From Candidatus Zhuqueibacterota bacterium (GTDB taxonomy: Bacteria; Zhuqueibacterota; Zhuqueibacteria; Thermofontimicrobiales; Thermofontimicrobiaceae): DNA of 64,000 nt. This document shows, piece after piece, positions 4,261-62,986 of the stretch (positions within the stretch are counted from its first letter, which is position 1; each line of letters begins with the position of its first letter). The notes under the pieces are model-generated. The model was not told the origin of the DNA. It worked only from the letters and a program-made list of their open reading frames with translations, and made no database searches. The position numbers were made by a program, and so were the translations under genes. The stretch lies in contig JBMOPW010000019.1 in the NCBI GenBank assembly GCA_049322915.1, positions 31,774-95,773 of the forward strand, given 5' to 3'.

Positions 4261-5889
4261 TTGTCGCACCTGGCTCAGGGCTGGCGCTTTCAATCTTTCA
4301 CCACATGGCATCTGTTGTTTGCCCGGGCGGTTGGGAAATTCATGAATACTCGGCGGAACTTGTTTTCAGTCAAAGAGCCTTATGTGCACGTCTTGTTTTT
4401 GCCATTGGCTGTCTACCTCATTTTCATTTACCTGTTGACGCTGAACCCGTTTCGATTCTCCCTCCATTATCTTCATCAATTTTTACAATTCAGACTGGGC
4501 CTCATTCATTCCATCATCGGCAAGCTGAGCTGGTACGATATTCTGCTGAATCTGCTGATGTTTGTCCCGGTTGGATCCATCCTCGGAGTTTACTGGCGTC
4601 TCGACGGGGCAACGATGCGTCGCGCCGCGCTGGCCGGTACTGGCCTCGGATTTCTATCGAGCGCTTCCATTGAAATCGCCCAGTTATTTCTGCCCCGCAC
4701 ATTCTCGATTTTCGACATTTTTACCAATAGCCTCGGCGCTGGCATCGGCGTCATGCTTGCTTTTTCAATTCAAAAACAGCGATTGCAGTGCTGGTTACAG
4801 ACAATGTATTTCAAAAAAACACAGTTTTATTGGTGGCTCATCATCGTCTATTCGTCCTTTACCACAGTCGTTTTGCTCGTCCCTTGCTATTTCAACCACT
4901 TTGGCAACTGGAACGAGAGTTACCAGCTTTTCATCGGAAATGAGAAAACAATGAACCGTCCCTGGCAGGGCGCTGTTCAGAAAATTTCCATTTTCAATAA
5001 AGCGTTATCAACGGCCAAAATCGAGACGCTCTATCAAACAGATCCAACGCTGAATACACCGGCAGACCATGCCGCCGGACTCCTCGCGGAGTATATTTTC
5101 AATTCCGCCCCGGTGATAAATCGCGGTTTTCTGGGACAGGATTTGGAATTGCTGCCCTGGCGCGATTCCTGCATTCATGACAATTCGAATCCGGCGATAT
5201 TAGCCGATGATCGTGACGTCTTCCGAACAGCGAAACCAGCCTCCCGTCTCACCCGATTTTTGAAAGACGCCAATCGGCTGAGTGTCGTCATCTGGCTGAA
5301 ACCCACGACATTGCAGCAGACAGGTCCGGCGAGAATCATCTCGCTTTCCGAGGATTGCGACAATCGGAACTTCACCCTGGGACAGAGCGGTTCGATGCTC
5401 AATTTCAGAGTCAGGACTCCTTTGACCGGTAATAACGGCAACCGGGTCAGCCTTCATTCCGATCCTGTCCTGCAAACCAGCGCCATTCAGTGCGTAGCAG
5501 CCACCTATCATCGCGGCGAGATGCGACTCTATCATAATTCCCGGCAGGCGCCCGGCATCGTCTATGACACAAGCCCTTACCTGCCGCTGCTGATTGGCCT
5601 GCGGGAGGACAAATTCGGTAAACTCATTTTCTGTTTGTTCCTGCTCTATCCTCTGGGCTGGTTTGCACGCGGCCTGTCGCATCATCGAACCACGAAATAT
5701 CTCCTTTCCAGCGCGATTATTTTCCTCCCGTTTCTGGCGTCGTCCACCATTAAAGTATTGCATTTCCGACATCGGCTGGATCTGCCTCTGCTTTTCGCAG
5801 TGATTGCCGCGGCGATGTTTGTGGCGGTTAGCGGATTTCTTTTCGATCTACTCAAAAACCGTTACAGCGCCATTCGAGAAAACCAGTGA
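4261..5889 (+). CDS. VanZ-like membrane protein with LamG/concanavalin-like domain
   Basis: NLLMFVPVG...IEIAQLFLPRTFSIFDIFTN VanZ motif; GPARIIS...NFTLGQ LamG-like segment; start uncertain. Confidence 0.75.
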   Translation: MSHLAQGWRFQSFTTWHLLFARAVGKFMNTRRNLFSVKEPYVHVLFLPLAVYLIFIYLLTLNPFRFSLHYLHQFLQFRLGLIHSIIGKLSWYDILLNLLMFVPVGSILGVYWRLDGATMRRAALAGTGLGFLSSASIEIAQLFLPRTFSIFDIFTNSLGAGIGVMLAFSIQKQRLQCWLQTMYFKKTQFYWWLIIVYSSFTTVVLLVPCYFNHFGNWNESYQLFIGNEKTMNRPWQGAVQKISIFNKALSTAKIETLYQTDPTLNTPADHAAGLLAEYIFNSAPVINRGFLGQDLELLPWRDSCIHDNSNPAILADDRDVFRTAKPASRLTRFLKDANRLSVVIWLKPTTLQQTGPARIISLSEDCDNRNFTLGQSGSMLNFRVRTPLTGNNGNRVSLHSDPVLQTSAIQCVAATYHRGEMRLYHNSRQAPGIVYDTSPYLPLLIGLREDKFGKLIFCLFLLYPLGWFARGLSHHRTTKYLLSSAIIFLPFLASSTIKVLHFRHRLDLPLLFAVIAAAMFVAVSGFLFDLLKNRYSAIRENQ

Positions 5890-6196
5890 AGCCGGCCGGG
5901 ATTTGTTTTCCTCTCTGTGCGATTCGATGCCAACGAAAATTGCTATTCACCAGCGCACCGAAATGGTGTGTGTAAATTACCAACATCAACTCGAGAAATC
6001 TCTGTGTCAATACACCACGATTGTGCCACTCCCGCCGGTCACGCGGGTTGATTAATAATTTAAATTTATGGCACTTAACCGAGTGATTCCATTCTGGTAC
6101 AGGAGTTGCTTGAATTGAAGCAGCATCATCTACGTACTTTTCCCCCGGGGATAATTCAATCAACTCATTGCTAAACGGATGGATCGGAGGTAAATC

Positions 6197-8416
6197 ATGC
6201 AGTCAGTACAATTAAAACAGGTTGTCTTCCTCGTGCTGTTACTTTTAGGATTTTTCATCATTTTTGGGATAATCATTTACACGAGCACAGCCAGAGCAGA
6301 AGTCAGCGAGGAAACGAGCGCCGGCAAGAAAAAGGTCATCGAATACGCTGAAGTGGACGTGACCATCGAAGACGACGAGGTCATCGAAGGCGATATTATC
6401 ATCCGGGATGGCTCTCTCTCAATAAGTGGTGATATCTACGGCGATGTGATCGCATTCAACGCGATTGTCAATCTGGACTCCAACGCCAGTATTTACGGGC
6501 ACGTGGTGAATTACATGGGAAAAATTACCCGGCATAAAAAAGCGCGCATTGCCGGCGACATCGTGCATCTCGGAAACGAGATCGAAGTTGAGCAAAGCCG
6601 CGACTTCACGGAGTTTGAGTTCAATTTGACCACGTTTGAAGACAATGTGGAAATTTATTCGGATACCACAATCACCGGAGACATCGTTCTGCTGGACAGT
6701 GACATCACAATATCGGGCAAAGTGGATGGAGACGTCATTAATATTTTGGGTGATATAATTTTGACCGAGACAGGCGCTATCGATGGTCATGTCATTAATT
6801 ACAAGGGGAAAATTGAAACCCATCCCGGCGCGCTGGTGACAGGACGCAATTTGATCCTCGATCATGGCACAGTTCAGGCAGACAGTGAAACTGAAGCCGA
6901 GGAAGAGGCGGAGTTACAGGAGAGAATTGAGAAGAAGTATCTGAAAAAATCCCGCAACAAAAATTCGGACATTTTCCGATTTATGGGCGACGTCACCATC
7001 GAAAAAGATGAACTGATCCGCGGCGATGTTGTGGCATTTCGAGGGACAGTCACGGTGGAGGGCGAAGTGGACGGCGATGTGGTCGCCATCTTCGGCAATG
7101 TCGAATTGGACAGCGCCGCGTATGTCGATGGTGAAGTGGTGAGCGTTGGCGGAAAAGTCTTTCGCGAGGATGGCGCTTACGTGAGCGGCGATATGGTTCA
7201 GACTTCTCTGACCGGCGTCAAAGTCGATAATGCCGATCAGCATGTTTCCGAACGTGAAAGAGACGATTCCGGCAATTCAAAAGATGAAGATGATTGGGAT
7301 CGAAAGAAGCGACGAAATAGCTGGGATAAAGATTTCGATGACGAGCCTTTCATGTTTCGCTACAATCGCGTGGAAGGTCTGTTTTTAGGGCTGCGCATTC
7401 CGCAAAATGATTGGCACGATGAAGACGGCGGTGGTTTCCATCTTTTCGGGCACGCCGGATATGGGTTCGCCGGGAAACGCGGCAGTTATCAGATCGGATT
7501 TGGACGAGGCTTTTTCGATCAATTTGGATTTTCACTTGGCGTTGAAGCGCACGATATGATAGAAACAGATGATAAATGGATCATGCAGGAATTCGAAAAC
7601 TCACTCGCCGCCATGTTGATCAAAGAAGATTTCCACGACTTCTACCGACGCGAGGGTTACTCGCTCTATGCGTCCCAGAACATCACCCAGTATTTGCGCG
7701 TATCGGCTGAATATCGGAAAGACATCCACCACAATCTGGAAAAAAACACCAACTGGTCGTTGTTCGGCGGCAAGAAAAAATTCCGCGAAAATCCGGCCAT
7801 CGATGAAATTGACTTTATGAGCCTGATCGCCAAAATCACGATTGATTCCCGCGATGACTACAAATACCCGGATCAGGGCTGGCTGATCACTCTCTCCGGA
7901 GAATACGCCGGAAAGGATTTCAACGACAATGGCGTGAACTTCGACCGGTTCATCGTCGATGTGCGGCGATACCAGCCATTGAGCTACGGCGAAAATTTGA
8001 ATTTCAGGATTCGCGCAGGCTCATCGCGGGGCGTGCTTCCGCAGCAATACCTGTTTGACCTGGGTGGTATTTCAACATTGCCCGGTTATAAATTCAAAGA
8101 ATTCGAGAATCACAACCGAATGGTGCTGGGAAATCTTGAATATCAAATCAGGGAAAACAGGAATCCGATCAACGACTTTCTGGCCTTTGATGATATGAAC
8201 CTGATTATCTTCGCCAGCGCCGGCTATGTCTGGTCTGTGGAGAATACCGATAAAGCGACCCATGGTTTCAAGAGCCTGGTTTGGGATGATCTGTACACAG
8301 ATGTTGGCGTGGCGCTGTGCAATCGCGATGGTAATGTACGGCTCAACATAGCCAAACGTATGGATGAACATGACCGGCCGGTGATCGTTACCTTCCGTAT
8401 CAGTCGGCCGTTCTGA
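6197..8416 (+). CDS. Bactofilin-like beta-helix repeats fused to a BamA/TamA-family outer membrane barrel
   Basis: Repeated GDVV/GDII-G-V motifs; RYNRVEG, LGGISTLPGY; C-terminal Phe. Confidence 0.75.
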   Translation: MQSVQLKQVVFLVLLLLGFFIIFGIIIYTSTARAEVSEETSAGKKKVIEYAEVDVTIEDDEVIEGDIIIRDGSLSISGDIYGDVIAFNAIVNLDSNASIYGHVVNYMGKITRHKKARIAGDIVHLGNEIEVEQSRDFTEFEFNLTTFEDNVEIYSDTTITGDIVLLDSDITISGKVDGDVINILGDIILTETGAIDGHVINYKGKIETHPGALVTGRNLILDHGTVQADSETEAEEEAELQERIEKKYLKKSRNKNSDIFRFMGDVTIEKDELIRGDVVAFRGTVTVEGEVDGDVVAIFGNVELDSAAYVDGEVVSVGGKVFREDGAYVSGDMVQTSLTGVKVDNADQHVSERERDDSGNSKDEDDWDRKKRRNSWDKDFDDEPFMFRYNRVEGLFLGLRIPQNDWHDEDGGGFHLFGHAGYGFAGKRGSYQIGFGRGFFDQFGFSLGVEAHDMIETDDKWIMQEFENSLAAMLIKEDFHDFYRREGYSLYASQNITQYLRVSAEYRKDIHHNLEKNTNWSLFGGKKKFRENPAIDEIDFMSLIAKITIDSRDDYKYPDQGWLITLSGEYAGKDFNDNGVNFDRFIVDVRRYQPLSYGENLNFRIRAGSSRGVLPQQYLFDLGGISTLPGYKFKEFENHNRMVLGNLEYQIRENRNPINDFLAFDDMNLIIFASAGYVWSVENTDKATHGFKSLVWDDLYTDVGVALCNRDGNVRLNIAKRMDEHDRPVIVTFRISRPF

Positions 8417-51234: not shown

Positions 51235-51306
51235 ATTTATCGTGAGGCTCACCCGCCGATGTGAAGCGCCAGCGAAATAGCGGTCATGTGGAGCTATTTG
51301 TTAAAT
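51235..51306 (-). repeat. attC site (terminal; R'' ATTTAAC, degenerate R' GATAAAT)
   Basis: Minus strand atttaac-aaatagctccac..ccgcta..tcggcgggtgagc; R'' matches cassette start ATTAAAT at 55459-55453. Confidence 0.7.
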
Positions 51307-53671
51307 GATCTGATTTATCTTGAATAATATTTAGCGGAATCCGAACACACTTCATATTCTTGTCATGAATGGTTATTCCATATTCTAAATCTCTTGAAAG
51401 GATTATCATTATGGGTTTGTCTATTCGGTAATTCTCCTGGGCAGCAATCTCCGTTAGGCTCTTGATGTCAAGTCCGCTGGGTTCGTTGCCGCCTGAGGGG
51501 TGATAATGCCATTCTCCCAGATAAAGCCCTTTTTCACCGAGTTCGTTGAAAGCATCTAAAAGCTGTTTTTGACAGTATCCCTCATCCTTCTCGAATCGGA
51601 CTTTCGTTCTTATAGCATTCTGACCGGGCTTGCTCGCTTTAACAATTACATATTCCTCACCAGCATTTCTGTATCCGACCAAGACGCCACCTGTTTCAAC
51701 ATCCCCAGAGTCGGCCGACTCCTGCTTCATGAAATCGAGTACTTCCCTAAGAACATGAATTTTCTTGTCATCAAGCTTTTGACATACGAAACATTTGGGG
51801 TGAGGTGGGATTCTATCGGCCCGAATCAAACCATATGTTGAATTCCCAAGCTGCAGCCCATCCAGTGCCTCAGAACCCCATGTCCAATGATTGCTTTCGG
51901 TATTCTTGCCTTGCAGGAAATCAATAATGATACGAGAAAAGACGCCGGCGATAATCTTCATGTCAGCTGCGCTCGCAGGCCTCACTGGGTTGTTGCATTC
52001 ATTTGTTATGGTAGGGAGATTCTCATCTTCTGGGATATTCAGAAATATAGGATTCTTGTCTTTGAGATACAGTCCCAGACAAGCCTTGCACGCGTCTGTT
52101 TGGGGAATGGCCCTAAATATACGAGCAACTTTGCCACCACGCAAAGCCCTGCAGTAGAATACTGTCCTTCCTTGATCTATAGCCTGTTCATTGAGGTAGG
52201 CTTCTACATTATCGTCCGCTATCGTGGAAATTCCAATTGTGTTTTCTGGAAAATAGCTGTCAATTCTAGCGCTGAGGATATTTGAAAAGTTATATTCAAT
52301 ATTTACAAATGGATTGTGAATTAAGAGTTGTTCGACCATCCCAAATGCTTTAGGAATGCTCGTCCAGTTAATGCCCAAGACGTGTCTGATCGCATTGTGC
52401 GCCCTCATATCCTCTTTGTCCACCAACAGGATTCTTCCCACTCCAGCCTTGGTCAGTGCATCAGCTGTCTCAGAACCAAGCGCTCCGCAACCGATAATAG
52501 ATATCGCCTTATCCTTTAAGATGCCTCTCTTAGCCCTCCCAGTATTCCGCATATGGAAATAATCGTCAGTGAAATACTCCTGATACACTGCTTGTATAGA
52601 GTAATCAAGCAGCCTCAGTTTCAACTCTTCGTTACCGGCTCCAACAATGGGTAAACGACTTCCTTTGGCGAGCCTGAACATCTGCCAGTCTTTTTTTCTT
52701 GACCTTCCGGGGAATCTGATGCCAATGTAAATGCATTCATTCAGTCCGCTTAGTTCAGATTTAAGGCTATGCGCCAGTTCATCAATTCCGTTGCCCGCAT
52801 CACCATTGCCAATGTATCGTACAAATTCACTCACGTTCGAAAATGGTTCTGGCTCAATAGGAATTTCCCACCAGTATCCTTCAATTAATTGACCCTCACG
52901 CAATTTGGTCGCCTTTTCCTGACTATTGTTATCCAGGAGTAGGCGTTTGATGTCGGGAATGGGAGAGAACAAAATCAGCTGCTCATTTTTATAGGTCTTG
53001 GGAGGAAGCGAGACGCCTGCTCGGGTTTCACCATATAACATCACACCCGTGTAGGTTTTCTTGCCAATGTTGTCGGGAAGGAAGTTGGCTGGAATGAAGC
53101 TGGACAGTCCTGCGTAGAATTTTCCTTTTACTATTTCTTCATCAAAGAATAAATCAGGGAGAAGATACTGGATCTCATACGTTCTGCTTGGAAAGTGATG
53201 AAATAGCTCAACTTCACTGCTGTCTTTTGGGATTTTTCCGGACAGCCATATCCTTAATCTCTTAATAATATCTTCAATAGGGTATATTTCCGGGTTTTCG
53301 CCATGTAAGTCCCCCATTTCAACAAAGCAGACACTTCCGTCTTCATTCTGATGACGCCTATTGAAGAATCTGATATTGTTTTTTACCCGCTGCTTTATCT
53401 CTTCCGGTGCAATCTCTGAGTATTCTATTGCCGTTTCCTCGCTTATTTCATTATCCAGAATGTAGATTGTCGGGGGTATGTAAGGCGTAGCTTCAGGATA
53501 TACGATTAAGATAGGGAAGTATTCTGTTTTGCTTTTGTGAACTATAATATGGCCGCCGGATATGAGGGTTTGGCCTATGACCTGGTACTGCTCCCTGTAA
53601 ATGGAATTGGTGGAAAGCTCCCTTGTCTCCCTATACAACCAGGCAGTATTTCGGGCAAACCACTCCATCAA
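51284..53671 (-). CDS. Fused E2 (UBC-like) - E1 (ThiF) - JAB protein, Cap2/Cap3-like
   Basis: YPEATPYIPP and HQNEDGSVC (E2); IIGCGALGS..LVDKE..HNAIRH, CKAC, NEC, CFVC (E1); ETGG, GEWHYHP..PSGLD (JAB). Confidence 0.9.
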   Translation of the reverse strand: MMEWFARNTAWLYRETRELSTNSIYREQYQVIGQTLISGGHIIVHKSKTEYFPILIVYPEATPYIPPTIYILDNEISEETAIEYSEIAPEEIKQRVKNNIRFFNRRHQNEDGSVCFVEMGDLHGENPEIYPIEDIIKRLRIWLSGKIPKDSSEVELFHHFPSRTYEIQYLLPDLFFDEEIVKGKFYAGLSSFIPANFLPDNIGKKTYTGVMLYGETRAGVSLPPKTYKNEQLILFSPIPDIKRLLLDNNSQEKATKLREGQLIEGYWWEIPIEPEPFSNVSEFVRYIGNGDAGNGIDELAHSLKSELSGLNECIYIGIRFPGRSRKKDWQMFRLAKGSRLPIVGAGNEELKLRLLDYSIQAVYQEYFTDDYFHMRNTGRAKRGILKDKAISIIGCGALGSETADALTKAGVGRILLVDKEDMRAHNAIRHVLGINWTSIPKAFGMVEQLLIHNPFVNIEYNFSNILSARIDSYFPENTIGISTIADDNVEAYLNEQAIDQGRTVFYCRALRGGKVARIFRAIPQTDACKACLGLYLKDKNPIFLNIPEDENLPTITNECNNPVRPASAADMKIIAGVFSRIIIDFLQGKNTESNHWTWGSEALDGLQLGNSTYGLIRADRIPPHPKCFVCQKLDDKKIHVLREVLDFMKQESADSGDVETGGVLVGYRNAGEEYVIVKASKPGQNAIRTKVRFEKDEGYCQKQLLDAFNELGEKGLYLGEWHYHPSGGNEPSGLDIKSLTEIAAQENYRIDKPIMIILSRDLEYGITIHDKNMKCVRIPLNIIQDKSDHLTNSST

Positions 53672-54732
53672 GCACCCATGGGCTTCTTGTCAATTTTGCT
53701 TACTGGGGGTGGAAATACTATTCTTTTACCGCCTCCGCCCTTGCCACCGTCCTTTTTCCCGTATTCCTTGACCAAGTCATCATCAGGATAAAGGTCTATC
53801 ACTCCATCAGCATTTATATCAACAATTATGCATTCTCTTTTCTCACCTAAATGGAAAACATTATCGTCGCCCACCTCATCCTTATATAAATCCATGGCTT
53901 CCTTATGGGGATGATCGTGCTTGCTTTCTTCGTCTTTCGGAGCGCTGACTACGACATACGTTGGCTTAATGTTATTTAAGTGTTCTTTGTAAGGGTCTGC
54001 ATCTGTATCGGCATCTTTCCAGAAGAAGGATCTTGAACCATGGTGCGCAGCACTCAGGACCGTAGAAGGAAGCCTGTCATTATGGTAATCGGTGATATGT
54101 TCTTTCCATGCACTATAATCCGCATCTCCAGTGATAAGTATCTGTTTCTCCTCTTTTCCATACCTGAATCGAATGACCCCACATTGTTCATGAATCCTTG
54201 CATATCTCTCCTCTGGCTTTTCATCTTCTATTTCGTCAGATACATAGTCCGCGGGAGCCAATACGTTGTAATTTATGTCGCCCAGCACTATTTCTTCTTC
54301 ATCCAATTTGTTCTTTTCCCTGCTGCCTCGAAGGCGAAAGACGTTTTCGTTTCCCAGTTTTTTGATTACAAACTCCAGATCCTTATAGGTTTCCTTGTGC
54401 TCGCCGCCAGGCTTGTGCCCTGAATGCCATAATTGGTCAATGCCAATCTTTTCATAGATTTCCCTAACCTTTCCAAGATGGTCTTTATGGGGATGAGTGT
54501 TGATATAGACATCTAGGCCCCTTTCCTGCCCGTCAAAAAGTTCCTCAAGGAGCTTGATAATATCTATGCCACCAGCTTCTTCATCATAATTTGAATCTAT
54601 CAACACATACTTATAGCCGTCACTCCCAGGGACTGCAAGCAGCGTGGAATCACCTTGCCCGACGTAAAGGAATATTGTTCGGAAGATATTGGGCTCGGCT
54701 GGAATAATTACGTTTTTTGCTGTGTTCGACAT
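53668..54732 (-). CDS. ComEC/Rec2-like metallo-beta-lactamase-fold hydrolase with flexible tail ending PMGA
   Basis: VGQGD, THPHKDH, TGDA, HHGS, HDHP; ATGA overlap with E2-E1-JAB. Confidence 0.88.
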   Translation of the reverse strand: MSNTAKNVIIPAEPNIFRTIFLYVGQGDSTLLAVPGSDGYKYVLIDSNYDEEAGGIDIIKLLEELFDGQERGLDVYINTHPHKDHLGKVREIYEKIGIDQLWHSGHKPGGEHKETYKDLEFVIKKLGNENVFRLRGSREKNKLDEEEIVLGDINYNVLAPADYVSDEIEDEKPEERYARIHEQCGVIRFRYGKEEKQILITGDADYSAWKEHITDYHNDRLPSTVLSAAHHGSRSFFWKDADTDADPYKEHLNNIKPTYVVVSAPKDEESKHDHPHKEAMDLYKDEVGDDNVFHLGEKRECIIVDINADGVIDLYPDDDLVKEYGKKDGGKGGGGKRIVFPPPVSKIDKKPMGA

Positions 54733-54747
54733 CCATTGTCTCCTTTA

Positions 54748-55413
54748 TTATCCCTGTTCTGAAAATCGTACCAAAAACAGGTCATAGATTGATCTGGCGA
54801 AATCCTCGCCCCTTTTCTTTGTGCGAAAATAGCTTACTACTACACCAATAATGGTGAAAATCAGAACGCTAAGGATTACGGACTTCCTTTGGGGTTCAGT
54901 GAATAAAAAAACACCCAGGTCAAATAGAAAGAGAAAAGTGAAGGTTGTTAGAAGGCATCTGAATAGTCCATAATGTGCATTGAATATTTGAGGCCGATCG
55001 CTGAGATTTTCCTTATCCACAGCGTTGTAACAAAGATAAAAGATCTCCTGGTTCTTTTTGAGTTGTTTCTCTTTGGACTGGTCATCGTCAGCCTTGACGG
55101 AGTATTTGGCTCTGACTATCTCCTTGATTTTGCTCTTGTATTCGTTGCTGAACTTATTGTCATCTGGGAGAAGCCACTTTGCGGACGGGAATCCTCTCCA
55201 AACTTTCAGCAGTATCTTTTCTGTCAATCCCTGGCTAATTCCCTGCAAAATTAAACCGGTTACATAACCCAAAGCCACCAGGACAGAGGTCTCGGCCAGT
55301 CCGCCTGTAAATGGAATGTCTGCCGAATTGGAAATGAAGGAAACTCCCCAGAGGAAGAGAATCCCTGGTATTACCACTGCAATGAAGTCGTATAGAGAAA
55401 ACCTTGATACCAT
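54748..55413 (-). CDS. 4-TM membrane protein, first gene of the MBL/E2-E1-JAB operon
   Basis: YDFIAVVIPG N-terminus; two TM pairs around a soluble loop; 15 bp from the MBL start. Confidence 0.75.
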   Translation of the reverse strand: MVSRFSLYDFIAVVIPGILFLWGVSFISNSADIPFTGGLAETSVLVALGYVTGLILQGISQGLTEKILLKVWRGFPSAKWLLPDDNKFSNEYKSKIKEIVRAKYSVKADDDQSKEKQLKKNQEIFYLCYNAVDKENLSDRPQIFNAHYGLFRCLLTTFTFLFLFDLGVFLFTEPQRKSVILSVLIFTIIGVVVSYFRTKKRGEDFARSIYDLFLVRFSEQG

Positions 55414-55616: not shown

Positions 55617-55676
55617 ACGGAACGTCAAGTTCAGTGGCGGAGCGTCAGCGGAGTCCGCTAGAGCGCCTGGTTGGGC
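55617..55676 (-). repeat. attC site (R'' GCCCAAC, R' GTTCCGT)
   Basis: 60-bp canonical-looking attC directly after hicA. Confidence 0.88.
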
Positions 55677-55682
55677 GATCGA

Positions 55683-55910
55683 TCACGACTCGAACTCGCT
55701 CCTGGGTATACCAGACTGGCGGATGATGGATTGAAGTGTGCCAATCCGCAGCTCGTCGTGGTTTGGAACGGGTACGGTAACCGTTGTATCAGGCAGATGC
55801 TTCTGCATCACGACATGGCTACCGCGCTGCCGCACTTCATGGAACCCATGGAGCACAAGGATGGCGCAAACTTGCTTCCCGGAGAGGACGCGGAGCTTAC
55901 CCAACGGCAA
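55683..55910 (-). CDS. hicA: HicA-family toxin
   Basis: RQRGSH, VPVPNH, GTLQSIIRQSG. Confidence 0.9.
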   Translation of the reverse strand: MPLGKLRVLSGKQVCAILVLHGFHEVRQRGSHVVMQKHLPDTTVTVPVPNHDELRIGTLQSIIRQSGIPRSEFES

Positions 55911-56118
55911 CCTCCACTCGGGTCACATACACTTCTTCATGCAAGCGCGTCTGGATCTCCTCGGGCGAGGCTGTTTCGAAAAATAGCTCTAGTGCTTCCC
56001 GAAGATTTTCGCGGGCTTCTTCGATGGTATCGCCCTGACTGGCGATATCGAGTTCTGGGCAAAGCGACACATACCCGCACCCTTCCCGCTCAATAAACGC
56101 TGTAAGTTGCTTCTGCAT
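55897..56118 (-). CDS. hicB: HicB-like antitoxin (short form)
   Basis: CPELDIASQGDTIEEARENLREALELF; start at MQKQ. Confidence 0.88.
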   Translation of the reverse strand: MQKQLTAFIEREGCGYVSLCPELDIASQGDTIEEARENLREALELFFETASPEEIQTRLHEEVYVTRVEVAVG

Positions 56119-56274
56119 AATATCTACTCCAATTTTCTGAATCGTCATTCCTCGGTTTCGCGAACCAAGGCTTGTGCTACGCGCACGAACCAGTTATCTC
56201 TTGTAGAGCCAACAGTTGCGATAAGTTTATAGGTCAGTTTAGTGGTCATTCGAGCCTCCTGTGCCGACTGTACG

Positions 56275-57122
56275 GTCGGGTAGGTCGGGGGCATTGCTGC
56301 CCCTTTCCCCCCTAAGAACCGTACGTGACAGTTTCCCGTCATACGGCTCAAGCCTCTGAAAAGTATCCCTTGTGGGGATACCCACGAATTAATAATAATT
56401 TGTTTCACGTTACATTCTGATATTCAGAATAGCCATAAGGTATGTAGAGTGCACCATCCCGACTCGTCGGGACGTCATTTGCTTTCTCTACTTTCATCTG
56501 ATTACACCAGTATTCACGAGACCAGAGACCTGCTGAACGTCTGCCTCTTTACAGAGTCCCGATTCATCGGGATATCCCGACCATTACAGCCGGACATTCG
56601 CTTCTTTCAGCATCCTATTCCAATCCACCATCAGCTTGCCTTACGGTTAGCCTGCCCATCATAACAGGGCGATGGAATTGGGTTTCCACGTTCCGTATAA
56701 TTGACCCCAATGAGTAACTTAGGTGGATTCTCTACGCCGGCGATACGACAGTTCCGTATAGGTAGTTAGAAGACCTATAACCTGATCGCCTGTGTAAACA
56801 CAAGGAAACACAGCTTATACCTATTTCTGGTTTTAGCCAGAATTTAATCTCCGTAAGTATGATGCACCATTGACGACGCTTACAGACTTTCAATTGATTT
56901 CACCATATTACTCAGACCTTAGCCCTTAACCGGAGGAGATTTCCGGATGGGTTTTCATCTCACGATGTCCGACCGTTTCGGTGCATTGTCCGGTGAGCTT
57001 CACACCCCGTCATCAGCGCAACGGTAGCATGTCACCGTAAGGTACTGATAGGAACATATCAGGTTTGTCTAAAGAACAATATCTCTTTAACAAACATTCA
57101 ATTATACAGCCTCGTGTCGCAC
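56275..57122 (-). ncRNA. ORF-less group II intron (848 nt) inserted in attC R'
   Basis: 5' GTGCG at 57122; 34-nt domain V GAGCCGTATGACGGGAAACTGTCACGTACGGTTC (56349-56316); domain VI with bulged A and 3' AC at 56275; exons rejoin to GTTAGG|C. Confidence 0.88.
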
Positions 57123-57254
57123 CCTAACGACAAGTGTAACCTGCCAAAGGGCTTGATTGCACAGCACTTATGAACTTAACATAACTTTGATGAATGCACT
57201 ACTTTTCTGGATTTCATCGTCCGCCCTTTGGTCAGGTTGACGCAAAGGTTAGCT
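57123..57254 (-). repeat. attC site (R'' AGCTAAC, R' GTTAGG)
   Basis: caacctgaccaaagggc / gccctttggcaggtt arms. Confidence 0.85.
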
Positions 57255-57272: not shown

Positions 57273-57848
57273 TTACCTTATATCTATAAATTCTGTTTTC
57301 ATTAATTCTTTTATTCGTATATCAATATGATGATTTTTAATATATTCAAATGTAGATATAGGAACTAAATGATTCCATAATTCATCGTTAAGAATTTTAC
57401 ATCTTATCTCATGACCTGAATAAGGTTTACTAATTAATTCTCTTCTCCAAAGGATTTCTACTTTTAAATTTAACGACTTTAAAAGATACAATTTTTTCTC
57501 ACCCCATTCATCATAAATCGTAATAAAATAGGTGGCTTCTTTAGGTGTGTAATAATGCAATAATTCTGGAATATTAATAGGAAAGGGAACTATACAAAAA
57601 TCAGATGAACTATAACCACTATCAAAAAGAGCCTTTTGTAATATGTTATATCGTTCGAAATATGTTAATGGATTTGAAGATGGTGACGATCGATGTAAAG
57701 CTGTTTTATCTTCTTTTGTATGAGTCGGATCTGGATTTGTAATACCAATATACATATAATTAACTCTTTTCATTCCTGCTAATAGGTATTCCATATGTCC
57801 AAGATGTAATGGTTGAAATCTCCCATGAATAACACCTATTTTAATCAT
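57273..57848 (-). CDS. HxGH nucleotidyltransferase (NMNAT/cytidylyltransferase-like)
   Basis: HGRFQPLHLGH, IGITNPD, NPLTYFER, SGHEIR. Confidence 0.85.
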   Translation of the reverse strand: MIKIGVIHGRFQPLHLGHMEYLLAGMKRVNYMYIGITNPDPTHTKEDKTALHRSSPSSNPLTYFERYNILQKALFDSGYSSSDFCIVPFPINIPELLHYYTPKEATYFITIYDEWGEKKLYLLKSLNLKVEILWRRELISKPYSGHEIRCKILNDELWNHLVPISTFEYIKNHHIDIRIKELMKTEFIDIR

Positions 57849-57850
57849 TA

Positions 57851-58654
57851 TTATGCCTTTTTAAAAAAATCAACTATTTCATCAATGCTTAGAGCTTCAT
57901 TCCATAAATGCTTAAAGCTTTCAATTAATTTTTCATAAAGATTTTCTGAATCAATTTTTTTTACTATAAAGCTTGGACGATGCTGGGGAGTAAATTTATG
58001 TAAGATTGGTTCAACTTTAATCATACCGCTATTTGTATCTTTATCAATAAAAAGTATAGAAGCCGTTGGAATAGTAGGGTAACACTTTATTTCAATATTC
58101 GCCTTAACCGAGGGATCATTAATCTCATCTAACCAATCCTTTTGGTGAAGGATATTGTTTTTTAATAAATCAGGCAATCCTTTAAAAGTGTGGACTTTTC
58201 CGACTTCTCCTACCCAAGGTAACAATTTACCATCTTTATTTATTGGACTCATGATTAAAAGTTTAATTTTTATTCCTTTTTGGGCTTTTTGTCGCAGTAA
58301 TGGTAAATGAAGATGTGTAACAGCACCAAGCTGTAGCCCCATAATTATTAATTCTTGTTTAGTTTCGTTTAGTATTTTATCAATTGAAGGAACATCCGAT
58401 CGATCAGTAAAAAAATCTGAAATTCCTTTAATTCTACTTGAAATTTGTAATGATAATAAGGATCTGTTATTTTTGATTTGATTATAAATAAGTAACGATA
58501 GGACTGCTAAAGTAACAGAAATACTAATTTGCTGTTTAATATTATCCAAAATACCAAGAATAGCCACTACTAATGCAATAATAATTAGCAGGTAATTCTC
58601 AATATTCTTACCTTCTTTTAAATCTTGTAAAATGTTTGACAAGCTTTTAAACAT
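57851..58654 (-). CDS. 2-TM protein with DUF5919/PLD-like domain
   Basis: Two N-terminal TMs; IKLLIMSP, IEIKCY...FID, F..LWNEA. Confidence 0.65.
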   Translation of the reverse strand: MFKSLSNILQDLKEGKNIENYLLIIIALVVAILGILDNIKQQISISVTLAVLSLLIYNQIKNNRSLLSLQISSRIKGISDFFTDRSDVPSIDKILNETKQELIIMGLQLGAVTHLHLPLLRQKAQKGIKIKLLIMSPINKDGKLLPWVGEVGKVHTFKGLPDLLKNNILHQKDWLDEINDPSVKANIEIKCYPTIPTASILFIDKDTNSGMIKVEPILHKFTPQHRPSFIVKKIDSENLYEKLIESFKHLWNEALSIDEIVDFFKKA

Positions 58655-58683
58655 TAATTACTCCTATATAATTAATCTAAAGC

Positions 58684-58742
58684 AGCTAACGCCAGGGTTC
58701 AGCCGCGCGGTTTTCTGCGTCGGCTGGAACTCTTTGTTGGGG
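58684..58742 (-). repeat. attC site (R'' CCCCAAC, R' GTTAGCT)
   Basis: 59-bp canonical attC: ttccagccgacgc..gcgcggctgaa. Confidence 0.9.
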
Positions 58743-62795: not shown

Positions 62796-62903
62796 TTCAC
62801 CCCGTGAGATAGTAAAATTTATCTAACACGTGATGTGCCAGATGGTAAGAAAATAAGTATCTCCTGAGATTGTTCTTCCAATTCAATTATCTCACGGGGT
62901 GAA
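62796..62903. mobile_element. 108-bp element with perfect 16-bp terminal inverted repeats
   Basis: ttcaccccgtgagata / tatctcacggggtgaa. Confidence 0.55.
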
Positions 62904-62925
62904 TCATCGCAACGCGTTGTCCTGA

Positions 62926-62986
62926 GTTTGCCTAAAGAACAAATAACGCTTCAACAAACATTCAGTTATACGACATCATGTCGCAG
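62926..62986 (-). pseudogene. 5' relic of a second group II intron copy
   Basis: CTGCGACATGATGTCGTATAACTGAATGTTTGTT..TTGTTCTTTAGGCAAAC resembles the intron 5' end at 57122-57063. Confidence 0.75.

Follow-up and report, generated by a model that had tools for sequence, protein, structure and literature searches.

Group II introns at integron recombination sites

The IIC-attC introns of the S.ma.I2 lineage enter the bottom strand of the integron recombination site attC at its R'' box (TTGT/T; a slash marks an intron junction throughout) and lie antisense to the gene cassettes (PMC7923331). A 2022 integron review mentions, in the excerpts available, introns of this kind only. By contrast, UHB.I2 from a soda-lake cassette array is an intron of subclass IIB1 with a chloroplast-like 1 (CL1) protein, located at an attC and co-oriented with the cassettes (Sonbol and Siam, 2021, PMC7923331). 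In addition, T.el4h (Th.e.I3) is a IIB1 intron with a CL1 reverse transcriptase (RT) (PMC8643678), and CL/IIB1 introns of T. elongatus without an open reading frame (ORF) are mobilised in trans (Mohr et al., 2010, PMC2882425). Here we analysed a stretch of 64,000 nucleotides (nt) from a Candidatus Zhuqueibacterota bacterium (GCA_049322915.1, contig JBMOPW010000019.1, positions 31,774 to 95,773 of the forward strand; hereafter the window, whose own coordinates are used below) and confirmed that its minus strand carries an 848-nt group II intron without an ORF inside the R' box of an attC.

UHB.I2 is the one published precedent that we found in a search outside of which subscription journals lay, and earlier reports may exist. 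It resembles the window intron in class, in its place at an attC, in its orientation and in having toxin-antitoxin cassettes nearby. Moreover, its protein has no endonuclease domain, as in the family of the window intron, and its reported ends (UUGCG..GU) also occur in that family. The reported span of UHB.I2, c(5096..7296), overlaps the attC called by IntegronFinder, c(7295..7364), by 2 nt (PMC7923331, supplement), which matches the one-base-shifted type CGTTAG/TTGCG of the window intron's family. UHB.I2 is a single protein-bearing copy "just downstream" of the attC, whereas the window intron is ORF-less, multi-copy and from another phylum; the protein of UHB.I2 was compared with those of the window intron's family by eye alone. 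Its authors described the flanking exons as not conserved among homologues, and the available excerpts propose no attC-specific lineage (PMC7923331). An earlier sequence-only reading of the window had taken the described attC-targeting introns to be of class IIC and opposite to the cassettes, a premise that UHB.I2 has made out of date. Thus, the attC-homing IIB1/CL1 lineage is not a first, since one example is in print, and the window intron is an ORF-less, multi-copy member of it.

Other described introns share parts of this picture. IIC-attC introns, like the window family, home to attC with a short exon-binding site 1 (EBS1) on a GTT-containing core, and both occur in clusters of attC sites lacking an integrase (CALINs) (PMC7923331, PMC8876359). 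As in the window family, ORF-deleted CL-type copies of T. elongatus outnumber protein-bearing ones and depend on related RTs, changes in their EBS diverge the targets, and insertions occur beside or within other introns (PMC2882425). Those introns have varied genomic targets and a helper protein in the same genome, whereas the window intron occupies a recombination site and no helper was found in its assembly. T.el4h has the closest solved protein (6ME0). EcI5 and T.el4h share with the window intron the layout of distal domain I, with EBS2 (a candidate in the window intron) in a joiner and EBS1 in a tip loop; they use full EBS1, EBS2 and EBS2a pairing on ordinary gene targets (PMC8643678), whereas the window family shows inconsistent EBS2 pairing and targets the R' box of attC.

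Position, ends and copies of the intron

Two Rfam models match the intron on the minus strand: RF02012 (group-II-D1D4-7) scores 80.2 bits (cut-off 34) over 57063-56922, and RF00029 (domains V/VI) scores 67.8 bits (cut-off 40) over 56351-56275. The minus strand reads ...CACTTGTCGTTAGG/GTGCGAC...CCTACCCGAC/CGTACAG across the element, and from this sequence the limits were set at 57122 and 56275, giving 848 nt. The span read earlier, 56275..57128, does contain the intron, but its upper end takes in the six exon bases GTTAGG, the true 5' end being 57122. The hallmarks of the ribozyme are all present: the GTGCG start, a domain V with its catalytic triad, a bulged A in domain VI and the AC end. Domain V has the 34 nt and the AGC triad that had been read from the letters, as judged in the RF00029 alignment. 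Domain I takes up about 470 nt and is closed, in a consensus fold by RNAalifold, by pairing of nt ~14-26 with nt ~460-470. In the ORF list of the window there is no ORF of at least 60 aa fully inside the intron on its own strand. A minus-strand frame of 87 aa (56145-56408) opens within the intron's last 134 nt and continues across the 3' junction to the small ORF of the downstream exon, and the opposite strand holds a frame of 71 aa (56449-56664).

Removal of the intron restores GTTAGG/C, which places it between nt 6 and 7 of the R' box, as had been proposed. This position is not chance, because the same intron occupies two more sites in the genome, at the same position of GTTATG/C and GTTATA/C. 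The three full copies are the window copy, L002, which is identical to it over the full 848 nt at a different site, and L003 (92%). Their flanks differ on both sides (GTTAGG/.../CGTACAG, GTTATG/.../CTTTGAA and GTTATA/.../CCCGTAA).

The intron is probably of the IIB1/CL1 type

The intron is not of class IIC and is probably of the IIB1/CL1 type, as the size of domain I (in the IIB range), the 34-nt AGC domain V and the RT scores of relatives agree; for the window copy, which has no protein, the protein side of this assignment is drawn from relatives at the RNA level. The protein of one such full-length RNA relative (L042) scores 488 bits against the T.el4h RT (PDB 6ME0), 111.7 and 103.1 bits against solved IIC RTs and 127.7 bits against LtrA. 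An intact 510-aa protein from a Desulfatiglandales array gives 570.7 bits with 6ME0, 109.5-120.9 with the IIC RTs and 149.3 with LtrA. The relatives' proteins consist of RVT_N, RVT_1 and GIIM domains with no HNH domain. Thus, the expectation that the intron would fall outside class IIC was borne out, with proteins far nearer to CL1. Moreover, domain I shows the IIB-type arrangement, with EBS1 in the loop that caps the distal ID stem according to the RNAalifold fold and the EBS1 covariation. The ribozyme of IIC-attC introns is small and their protein of class C, and they sit antisense on the bottom strand at R'', whereas the window intron sits in sense on the top strand, between positions 6 and 7 of R'. 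The IIC-type introns found in the arrays of relatives match other Rfam sub-models (RF02001, RF01998).

EBS1 pairs with the R' core and varies with it

The fold was computed with RNAalifold for 16 family members, aligned over their first 600 nt. Its 132 pairs include 72 with one or more compensatory changes, among them pairs of the EBS1 stem. The hairpin TATAGGT/ACCTATA (here the slash separates its two arms) with the loop CTTCTAACT, at intron nt 344-366 (56779-56757), is the tip of a two-part distal domain I stem, with covarying pairs such as TATAGG with CCTATA, TGCAGG with CCTGCA and TACAAG with CTTGTA, and a six-base core is kept at loop positions 4-9. The earlier proposal that this hairpin is the EBS1 loop of distal domain I therefore survives a consensus fold, and the proposed pairing of UCUAAC with GUUAGG extends over 6/6 positions including one G-U.

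For the family, EBS1 was taken as loop positions 4-9 by profile alignment and the intron-binding site IBS1 as the last six exon bases by coordinate. Among 18 family introns, eight pair at 6/6 positions, nine at 5/6 and one, the 3'-truncated L050, at 3/6, so that 96 of 108 positions pair. This set leaves aside L058, the tandem copies L047b and L123, and 5' fragments without the EBS1 region (L019, L020, L021, L022, L030, L035, L038, L039). The compensatory types are TCTAAC with GTTAGG, GTCAAC and GCTAAC with GTTGGC, CCTAAC with GTTGGG, and GCAAAC with GTTTGC. Of the 54 pairings possible at the variable positions -1..-3, 43 are formed, whereas shuffling the exons among the introns gives 28.6 on average; none of 20000 shuffles reached 43, though the family members are related. 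The cut site follows the register of the loop: three introns have a core that starts one base sooner in the loop (CTAACG) together with an exon shortened by one base (CGTTAG/). The assignment of EBS1 is independently supported by a CL1 intron outside attC (L076), where the same loop position pairs 6/6 with the unrelated exon GACTGG; L075 pairs at 5/6. For L072 the profile alignment missed EBS1 and gave 2/6, and inspection by eye showed a 6/6 match in the same hairpin, a few bases upstream.

The segments GTTCC and GGAAC may form the usual IIB alpha-alpha' layout (Table 1); both are invariant and hence show no covariation. A first guess for this contact, AACCTGA with TCAGGTT, was discarded as both segments are within helices of the consensus fold. 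With regard to EBS2, the IIB1 rule is a helix, then N-EBS2a-A, then EBS2, with EBS2-IBS2 pairing over 5 bp at -13..-9 (PMC8643678); EBS2a-IBS2a pairing and an EBS3 in the coordination loop also belong to this subgroup. The candidate in the window copy, ATGGT after a TCA joiner, pairs poorly with its own exon and by four bases with the exon of L002.

A lineage at GTT-core sites

BLAST matches to the intron were found in 12 of 61 related genomes, the source genome counted. A pattern scan that left the EBS1 loop free, with one genome per species, gave 17 loci in records of KSB1, Desulfatiglandales, Desulfobacterales and Vecturithrix, four of which are the same records as relatives from the BLAST search. 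Six copies are on one closed Desulfatiglandales chromosome. Most family copies are ORF-less and about 810-860 nt long, three carry an RT/maturase ORF, and some are truncated or disrupted (L050, L058, L055, L062).

In the set of 24 distinct non-tandem 5' junctions, GTT stands at -6..-4, the exact position of the window copy, in 19 and one base nearer to the junction in three (L054, L057, L058); the two without GTT (L021, L039) look degenerate. The core is thus present in 22/24 junctions, with a C before it in 21/22. Many of the 5' exons show the textbook architecture of attC over 56-131 nt, with L boxes that are symmetric and with bases that bulge out. Close homologues therefore share the GTT-core site with a covarying EBS1, and only distant CL1 introns insert elsewhere, which is the pattern that the sequence-only reading had proposed to look for among homologues. 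These data support its interpretation of an intron lineage that reads the GTTRRR core by base pairing.

A metagenome scan with a protein alignment yielded 80 CL1-type loci. The family RNA profile gives 334-492 bits for three of these loci (L128, L139, L095) and less than 190 for all others. A 5' junction could be placed for most of the 80. The tree holds 71 distinct proteins, 44 from unrelated targets, eight from GTT-core sites and 19 without a set junction; it is a quick IQ-TREE run with SH-aLRT support (Shimodaira-Hasegawa-like approximate likelihood ratio test) and midpoint root, a careful maximum-likelihood search being unfinished. Six proteins (L057, L054, L060, L095, L128, L139), all from GTT-core sites, form a clade with SH-aLRT 99, and their sister group comprises the Desulfatiglandales protein and L065 (CACGTTG/). 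As far as these sequences go, attC targeting marks a sub-clade of CL1 and not the whole class. It may have arisen more than once, because two more GTT-core cases, L099 (6/6 with CCTAAC) and L137, lie elsewhere on the tree.

Some copies are arranged head to tail with exact base-to-base junctions, namely L047:1-3119 on the Desulfatiglandales chromosome, L045/L036 (G017:C174) and L123. The order in L047 is the 3' end of one intron, a protein-bearing intron and an ORF-less intron. EBS1 of the tandem copies pairs with the 3' end of the preceding intron at 4/6 (L047b) and 2/6 (L123). Such tandems could come from RT template switching or from insertion at the junction. Short IIC-type introns with a CGC-triad domain V (RF02001/RF01998/RF00029) were also seen, at L059:1445-2100(-), L059:3846-4183(-) and L051:1388-2074(-). 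They share the Desulfatiglandales arrays with IIB1-type introns, on the opposite strand, which is the orientation classically found for IIC-attC introns.

Loss of the ORF and the reverse transcriptases of the genome

In blastn against the protein-bearing L128, intron nt 579-650 align through the ATG, and homology resumes at nt 746, just past the ORF. By this alignment, the window copy has thus kept the stub that in model introns holds the binding site of the protein and its start region. The retained stub fits mobilisation in trans, as in T. elongatus introns that lack an ORF.

The only RTs found in the genome are a 988-aa fusion and a 369-aa protein, plus a maturase fragment (L013, contig C36). 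This fragment was considered as a helper and rejected, as it is IIC-like, matches 7UIM only, weakly (E 0.011), and is unrelated to CL1 proteins. At L013:1172-1860 (G000:C36), about 11 kb from the L003 copy, a tyrosine-recombinase-like N-terminal part runs into the frameshifted IIC-like fragment, and the sequence just after it resembles a hairpin in domain IV of the ORF-less intron (GTCCCGA..GTCGGGATGGTG). The 988-aa protein (L011, G000:C34:429473-433078) is an RT fused to TPR-like and primase-polymerase-like regions and is not an intron protein; a 337-aa RAMP/Cas6-like ORF adjoins it.

The cassette array around the intron

The locus can be read as integron cassettes because the R'' of each cassette matches the R' at its own start. 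For the upstream cassette, R' GTTAGCT (58690-58684) and R'' AGCTAAC (57254-57248) match at 7/7 positions. The downstream cassette starts as TTAGG-intron-C, and its R'' GCCCAAC (55676-55670) matches the restored GTTAGGC at the 6/7 positions counted earlier. Every ORF that flanks the intron is encoded on the minus strand, so the co-orientation of intron and cassettes described from the letters stands. These small co-oriented ORFs include HicAB (PF07927 with E 4.8e-19, PF21748 weak), and the attC has symmetric L boxes. G+C content is patchy around the intron in the window. Coordinates of the features are collected in Table 1.

Crude regex and fold scans for attC across the window were dropped, as they recovered almost none of the real sites. 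Our own constrained hairpin finder was also set aside as attC evidence: it found an R''-like partner at 20/24 junctions but at 36/44 unrelated CL1 exons too, where the energies were similar and ranged from -24.6 to 0.1.

Table 1. Features of the intron and of the neighbouring cassettes in the window
Feature	Position	Strand	Basis
ORF-less group II intron (IIB1/CL1-type ribozyme), 848 nt, 5' GTGCG...3' AC	56275..57122	minus	Rfam RF02012 and RF00029, sequence, further genomic copies
Candidate alpha (GTTCC), loop of the second 5' hairpin	57051..57055	minus	Complementary to GGAAC 56755-56751; by eye
Tip hairpin of distal domain I (ID3-type), EBS1 (TCTAAC) at 56770-56765 in the loop	56757..56779	minus	RNAalifold compensatory pairs, EBS1/IBS1 table, shuffle test
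Candidate alpha' (GGAAC), internal loop just 3' of the EBS1 hairpin	56751..56755	minus	Suggested by IIB architecture
Domain IV stub, kept up to the protein's ATG (56478-56476) and a few bases; ORF deleted after it	56473..56544	minus	blastn against L128
Domain V, 34 nt, AGC triad (starts G-AGC)	56316..56349	minus	RF00029 alignment
3' end and domain VI, whose branch-point A (56281) is bulged	56275..56313	minus	RF00029 alignment
End of 5' exon, IBS1, first six bases of R' (GTTAGG)	57123..57128	minus	Pairs 6/6 with EBS1, one G-U
First base of 3' exon (C), seventh base of R', IBS3	56274	minus	C in 11/15, pyrimidine in 13/15 family 3' junctions
attC that ends the upstream cassette, with R'' AGCTAAC (57254-57248), L boxes imperfectly inverted, and R' at 57128-57123 whose seventh base is 56274	57123..57254	minus	Sequence
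Upstream cassette: 267-aa ORF and cytidylyltransferase-like ORF, starts at R' GTTAGCT	57273..58690	minus	ORFs, domain search
Downstream cassette, 5' boundary split by the intron: 34-aa ORF, HicB-like (55897-56148), HicA toxin (55683-55910)	55683..56249	minus	Pfam
R'' (GCCCAAC) of the downstream cassette's attC	55670..55676	minus	Sequence
5' fragment (60 nt, degenerate) from a second intron of the family, beside ...GCGTTATGA	62926..62985	minus	83% match to intron nt 2-60

The fragment of a second family intron is followed by a small inverted-repeat element (window 62800-62985, minus strand; arms with CACCCCGTGAGATAAT...). A related inverted-repeat insert is present in L058, the copy of G018, within the IC hairpin loop (alignment columns 131-191). 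These repeats could represent a MITE-like element (miniature inverted-repeat transposable element) that targets this intron. Elsewhere in the cassette region there is an IS91-family Y2 transposase (PF04986, PF14319; 59639-60865, minus strand). A promoter-like repeat of about 55 nt (TTGATT...TATATT) precedes two cassettes at ~61290 and ~62370 on the minus strand, and R'-like GTTATGC boxes are at ~60985 and ~62215. Just downstream of the array, at 51284-55413 on the minus strand, a 795-aa protein with ThiF and JAB parts, a 354-aa protein with a metallo-beta-lactamase fold and a 221-aa protein are encoded in one direction; this gene group may be a defence-type operon.

Introns without an endonuclease are reported to prefer the lagging-strand template. 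The cumulative GC skew falls steadily across the window, which, as a weak pointer, would place the cassette-sense strand on the lagging-strand template.

How the intron may have come to the R' box

We consider it very probable that the window intron is a protein-less CL1/IIB1 derivative of an attC-specialised lineage, which homes by pairing of EBS1 with R' on the cassette-sense strand. In this mechanism, EBS1 (TCTAAC) at the tip of distal domain I would base-pair with GTTRRR, the core that makes up bases 1-6 of R' on the cassette-sense (top) strand, and the intron RNA would reverse-splice between R' positions 6 and 7, presumably in single-stranded or replicating DNA. A lineage-specific RT/maturase without an endonuclease domain would then make the DNA copy. 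The window copy would have lost its protein gene by an internal deletion in domain IV that spared the start-codon region, and would need the protein in trans for both splicing and movement. Owing to its sense orientation, the intron could in principle be spliced from cassette transcripts.

Several observations weigh against this reading. Kinship among the family members makes the shuffle test overstate their independence, so that it gives no true probability; L050 pairs at only 3/6, the damaged and truncated L058 at 1/6 as bounded, and the tandem copies L047b and L123 fall short with their 4/6 and 2/6. By eye, EBS2-IBS2 pairing is weak or absent for the window copy, and no internal-loop column of the family alignment covaries with the first 3' exon base as EBS3 would. 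The hairpin finder failed to discriminate between attC exons and those of other CL1 introns, and the identity of the attC sites therefore rests on cassette logic and architecture. No integron integrase above the TIGR02249 cut-off of 265 bits was found in the 96%-complete assembly, where the best partial matches reach 79 and 66 bits; since, moreover, the contig breaks off 6.9 kb upstream of the intron, the array is either a CALIN or its integrase was not assembled. Nor does this assembly contain a gene for a CL1-type intron protein, for which reason the window copy may now be immobile and unspliced. Finally, the spliced exon junction was not seen in contigs from four sequencing runs, and no contig there joins the exons without the intron. 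Contigs from RNA libraries (two runs of one study) contain intron relatives of 85-95%, one of which crosses the 5' junction; these are uninformative on splicing or expression because DNA carry-over is possible.

As an alternative, the structure of attC might guide the intron, in a manner similar to IIC introns: the top-strand hairpin, or a protein reading it, would set the site, and EBS1 would be secondary. Identical introns indeed sit behind attCs that share no sequence at -8 to -13, the poor EBS2 pairing of the window copy agrees with this, the C at -7 is kept in 21/22 sites with no pairing partner in most loops, and a role of the hairpin has been speculated on (PMC7923331). Against it, the cut follows the EBS1 register in three introns, positions -1..-3 covary with the loop, and in the Desulfatiglandales subfamily the candidate EBS2 CAAGC pairs by eye at 4-5/5 with the attC spacer at -13..-9, in accordance with the canonical IIB1 rule (PMC8643678). 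We regard structural guidance as rather unlikely, though the attC hairpin or the C at -7 may contribute. The lack of an ORF and of a cognate protein gene in the assembly, together with the degenerate 60-nt fragment nearby and the truncated or disrupted copies in relatives, could also mean that the window copy is a decayed fragment with no present activity, whose sole effect is to split R'. This is unlikely in view of the intact catalytic motifs with scores well above the Rfam cut-offs, the conserved domain IV stub around the protein start, and the 100% identity of two 848-nt copies at different sites.

The copy number itself might be explained by passive transport, in which a single entry of the intron at one cassette boundary was followed by spread through integrase-driven shuffling or duplication of cassettes, with no repeated homing. 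From the way integrons recombine, an intron 3' of the G/TT crossover point would travel with the downstream cassette, and all three genomic copies are located in cassette-like DNA no more than about 7 kb from a contig end. Identical copies, however, differ in their 3' exons, downstream cassettes and upstream attCs; R' positions 4-6 vary between sites with EBS1 varying along, and copies in several phyla are at unrelated attC types, so we judge passive spread very unlikely. Transport with cassettes may still be combined with the preferred homing by EBS1-R' pairing. A monophyletic CL1/IIB1 sub-lineage would use the R' core as a universal homing site on the sense strand, its EBS1 would track the R' variants, its protein-less majority would be moved in trans, and its copies, being 3' of G/TT, would also ride with cassettes moved by the integrase. 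We offer this joint reading as tentative, a real possibility that falls short of a probable one.

Implications

In textbook accounts, integrons are linked with class IIC introns only, which run antisense to the cassettes and can block their expression. A IIB1 lineage that recognises the R' core by pairing and inserts in sense is a second, independent solution to the same target, and it explains ORF-less intron copies at cassette boundaries of environmental arrays. Such copies break assemblies and confuse the annotation of cassettes and attC sites. With regard to applications, a IIB1 scaffold that is already directed at nearly all integron cassette junctions is attractive both for gene-targeting tools and for studies of the interplay of introns and integrons. 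Moreover, the family is a natural case of an EBS1 co-evolving with a recombination site. If the joint reading is true, integron recombination would provide a second, recombinase-driven route by which a retroelement passes between hosts and phyla, with possible effects on cassette expression and attC recombination.

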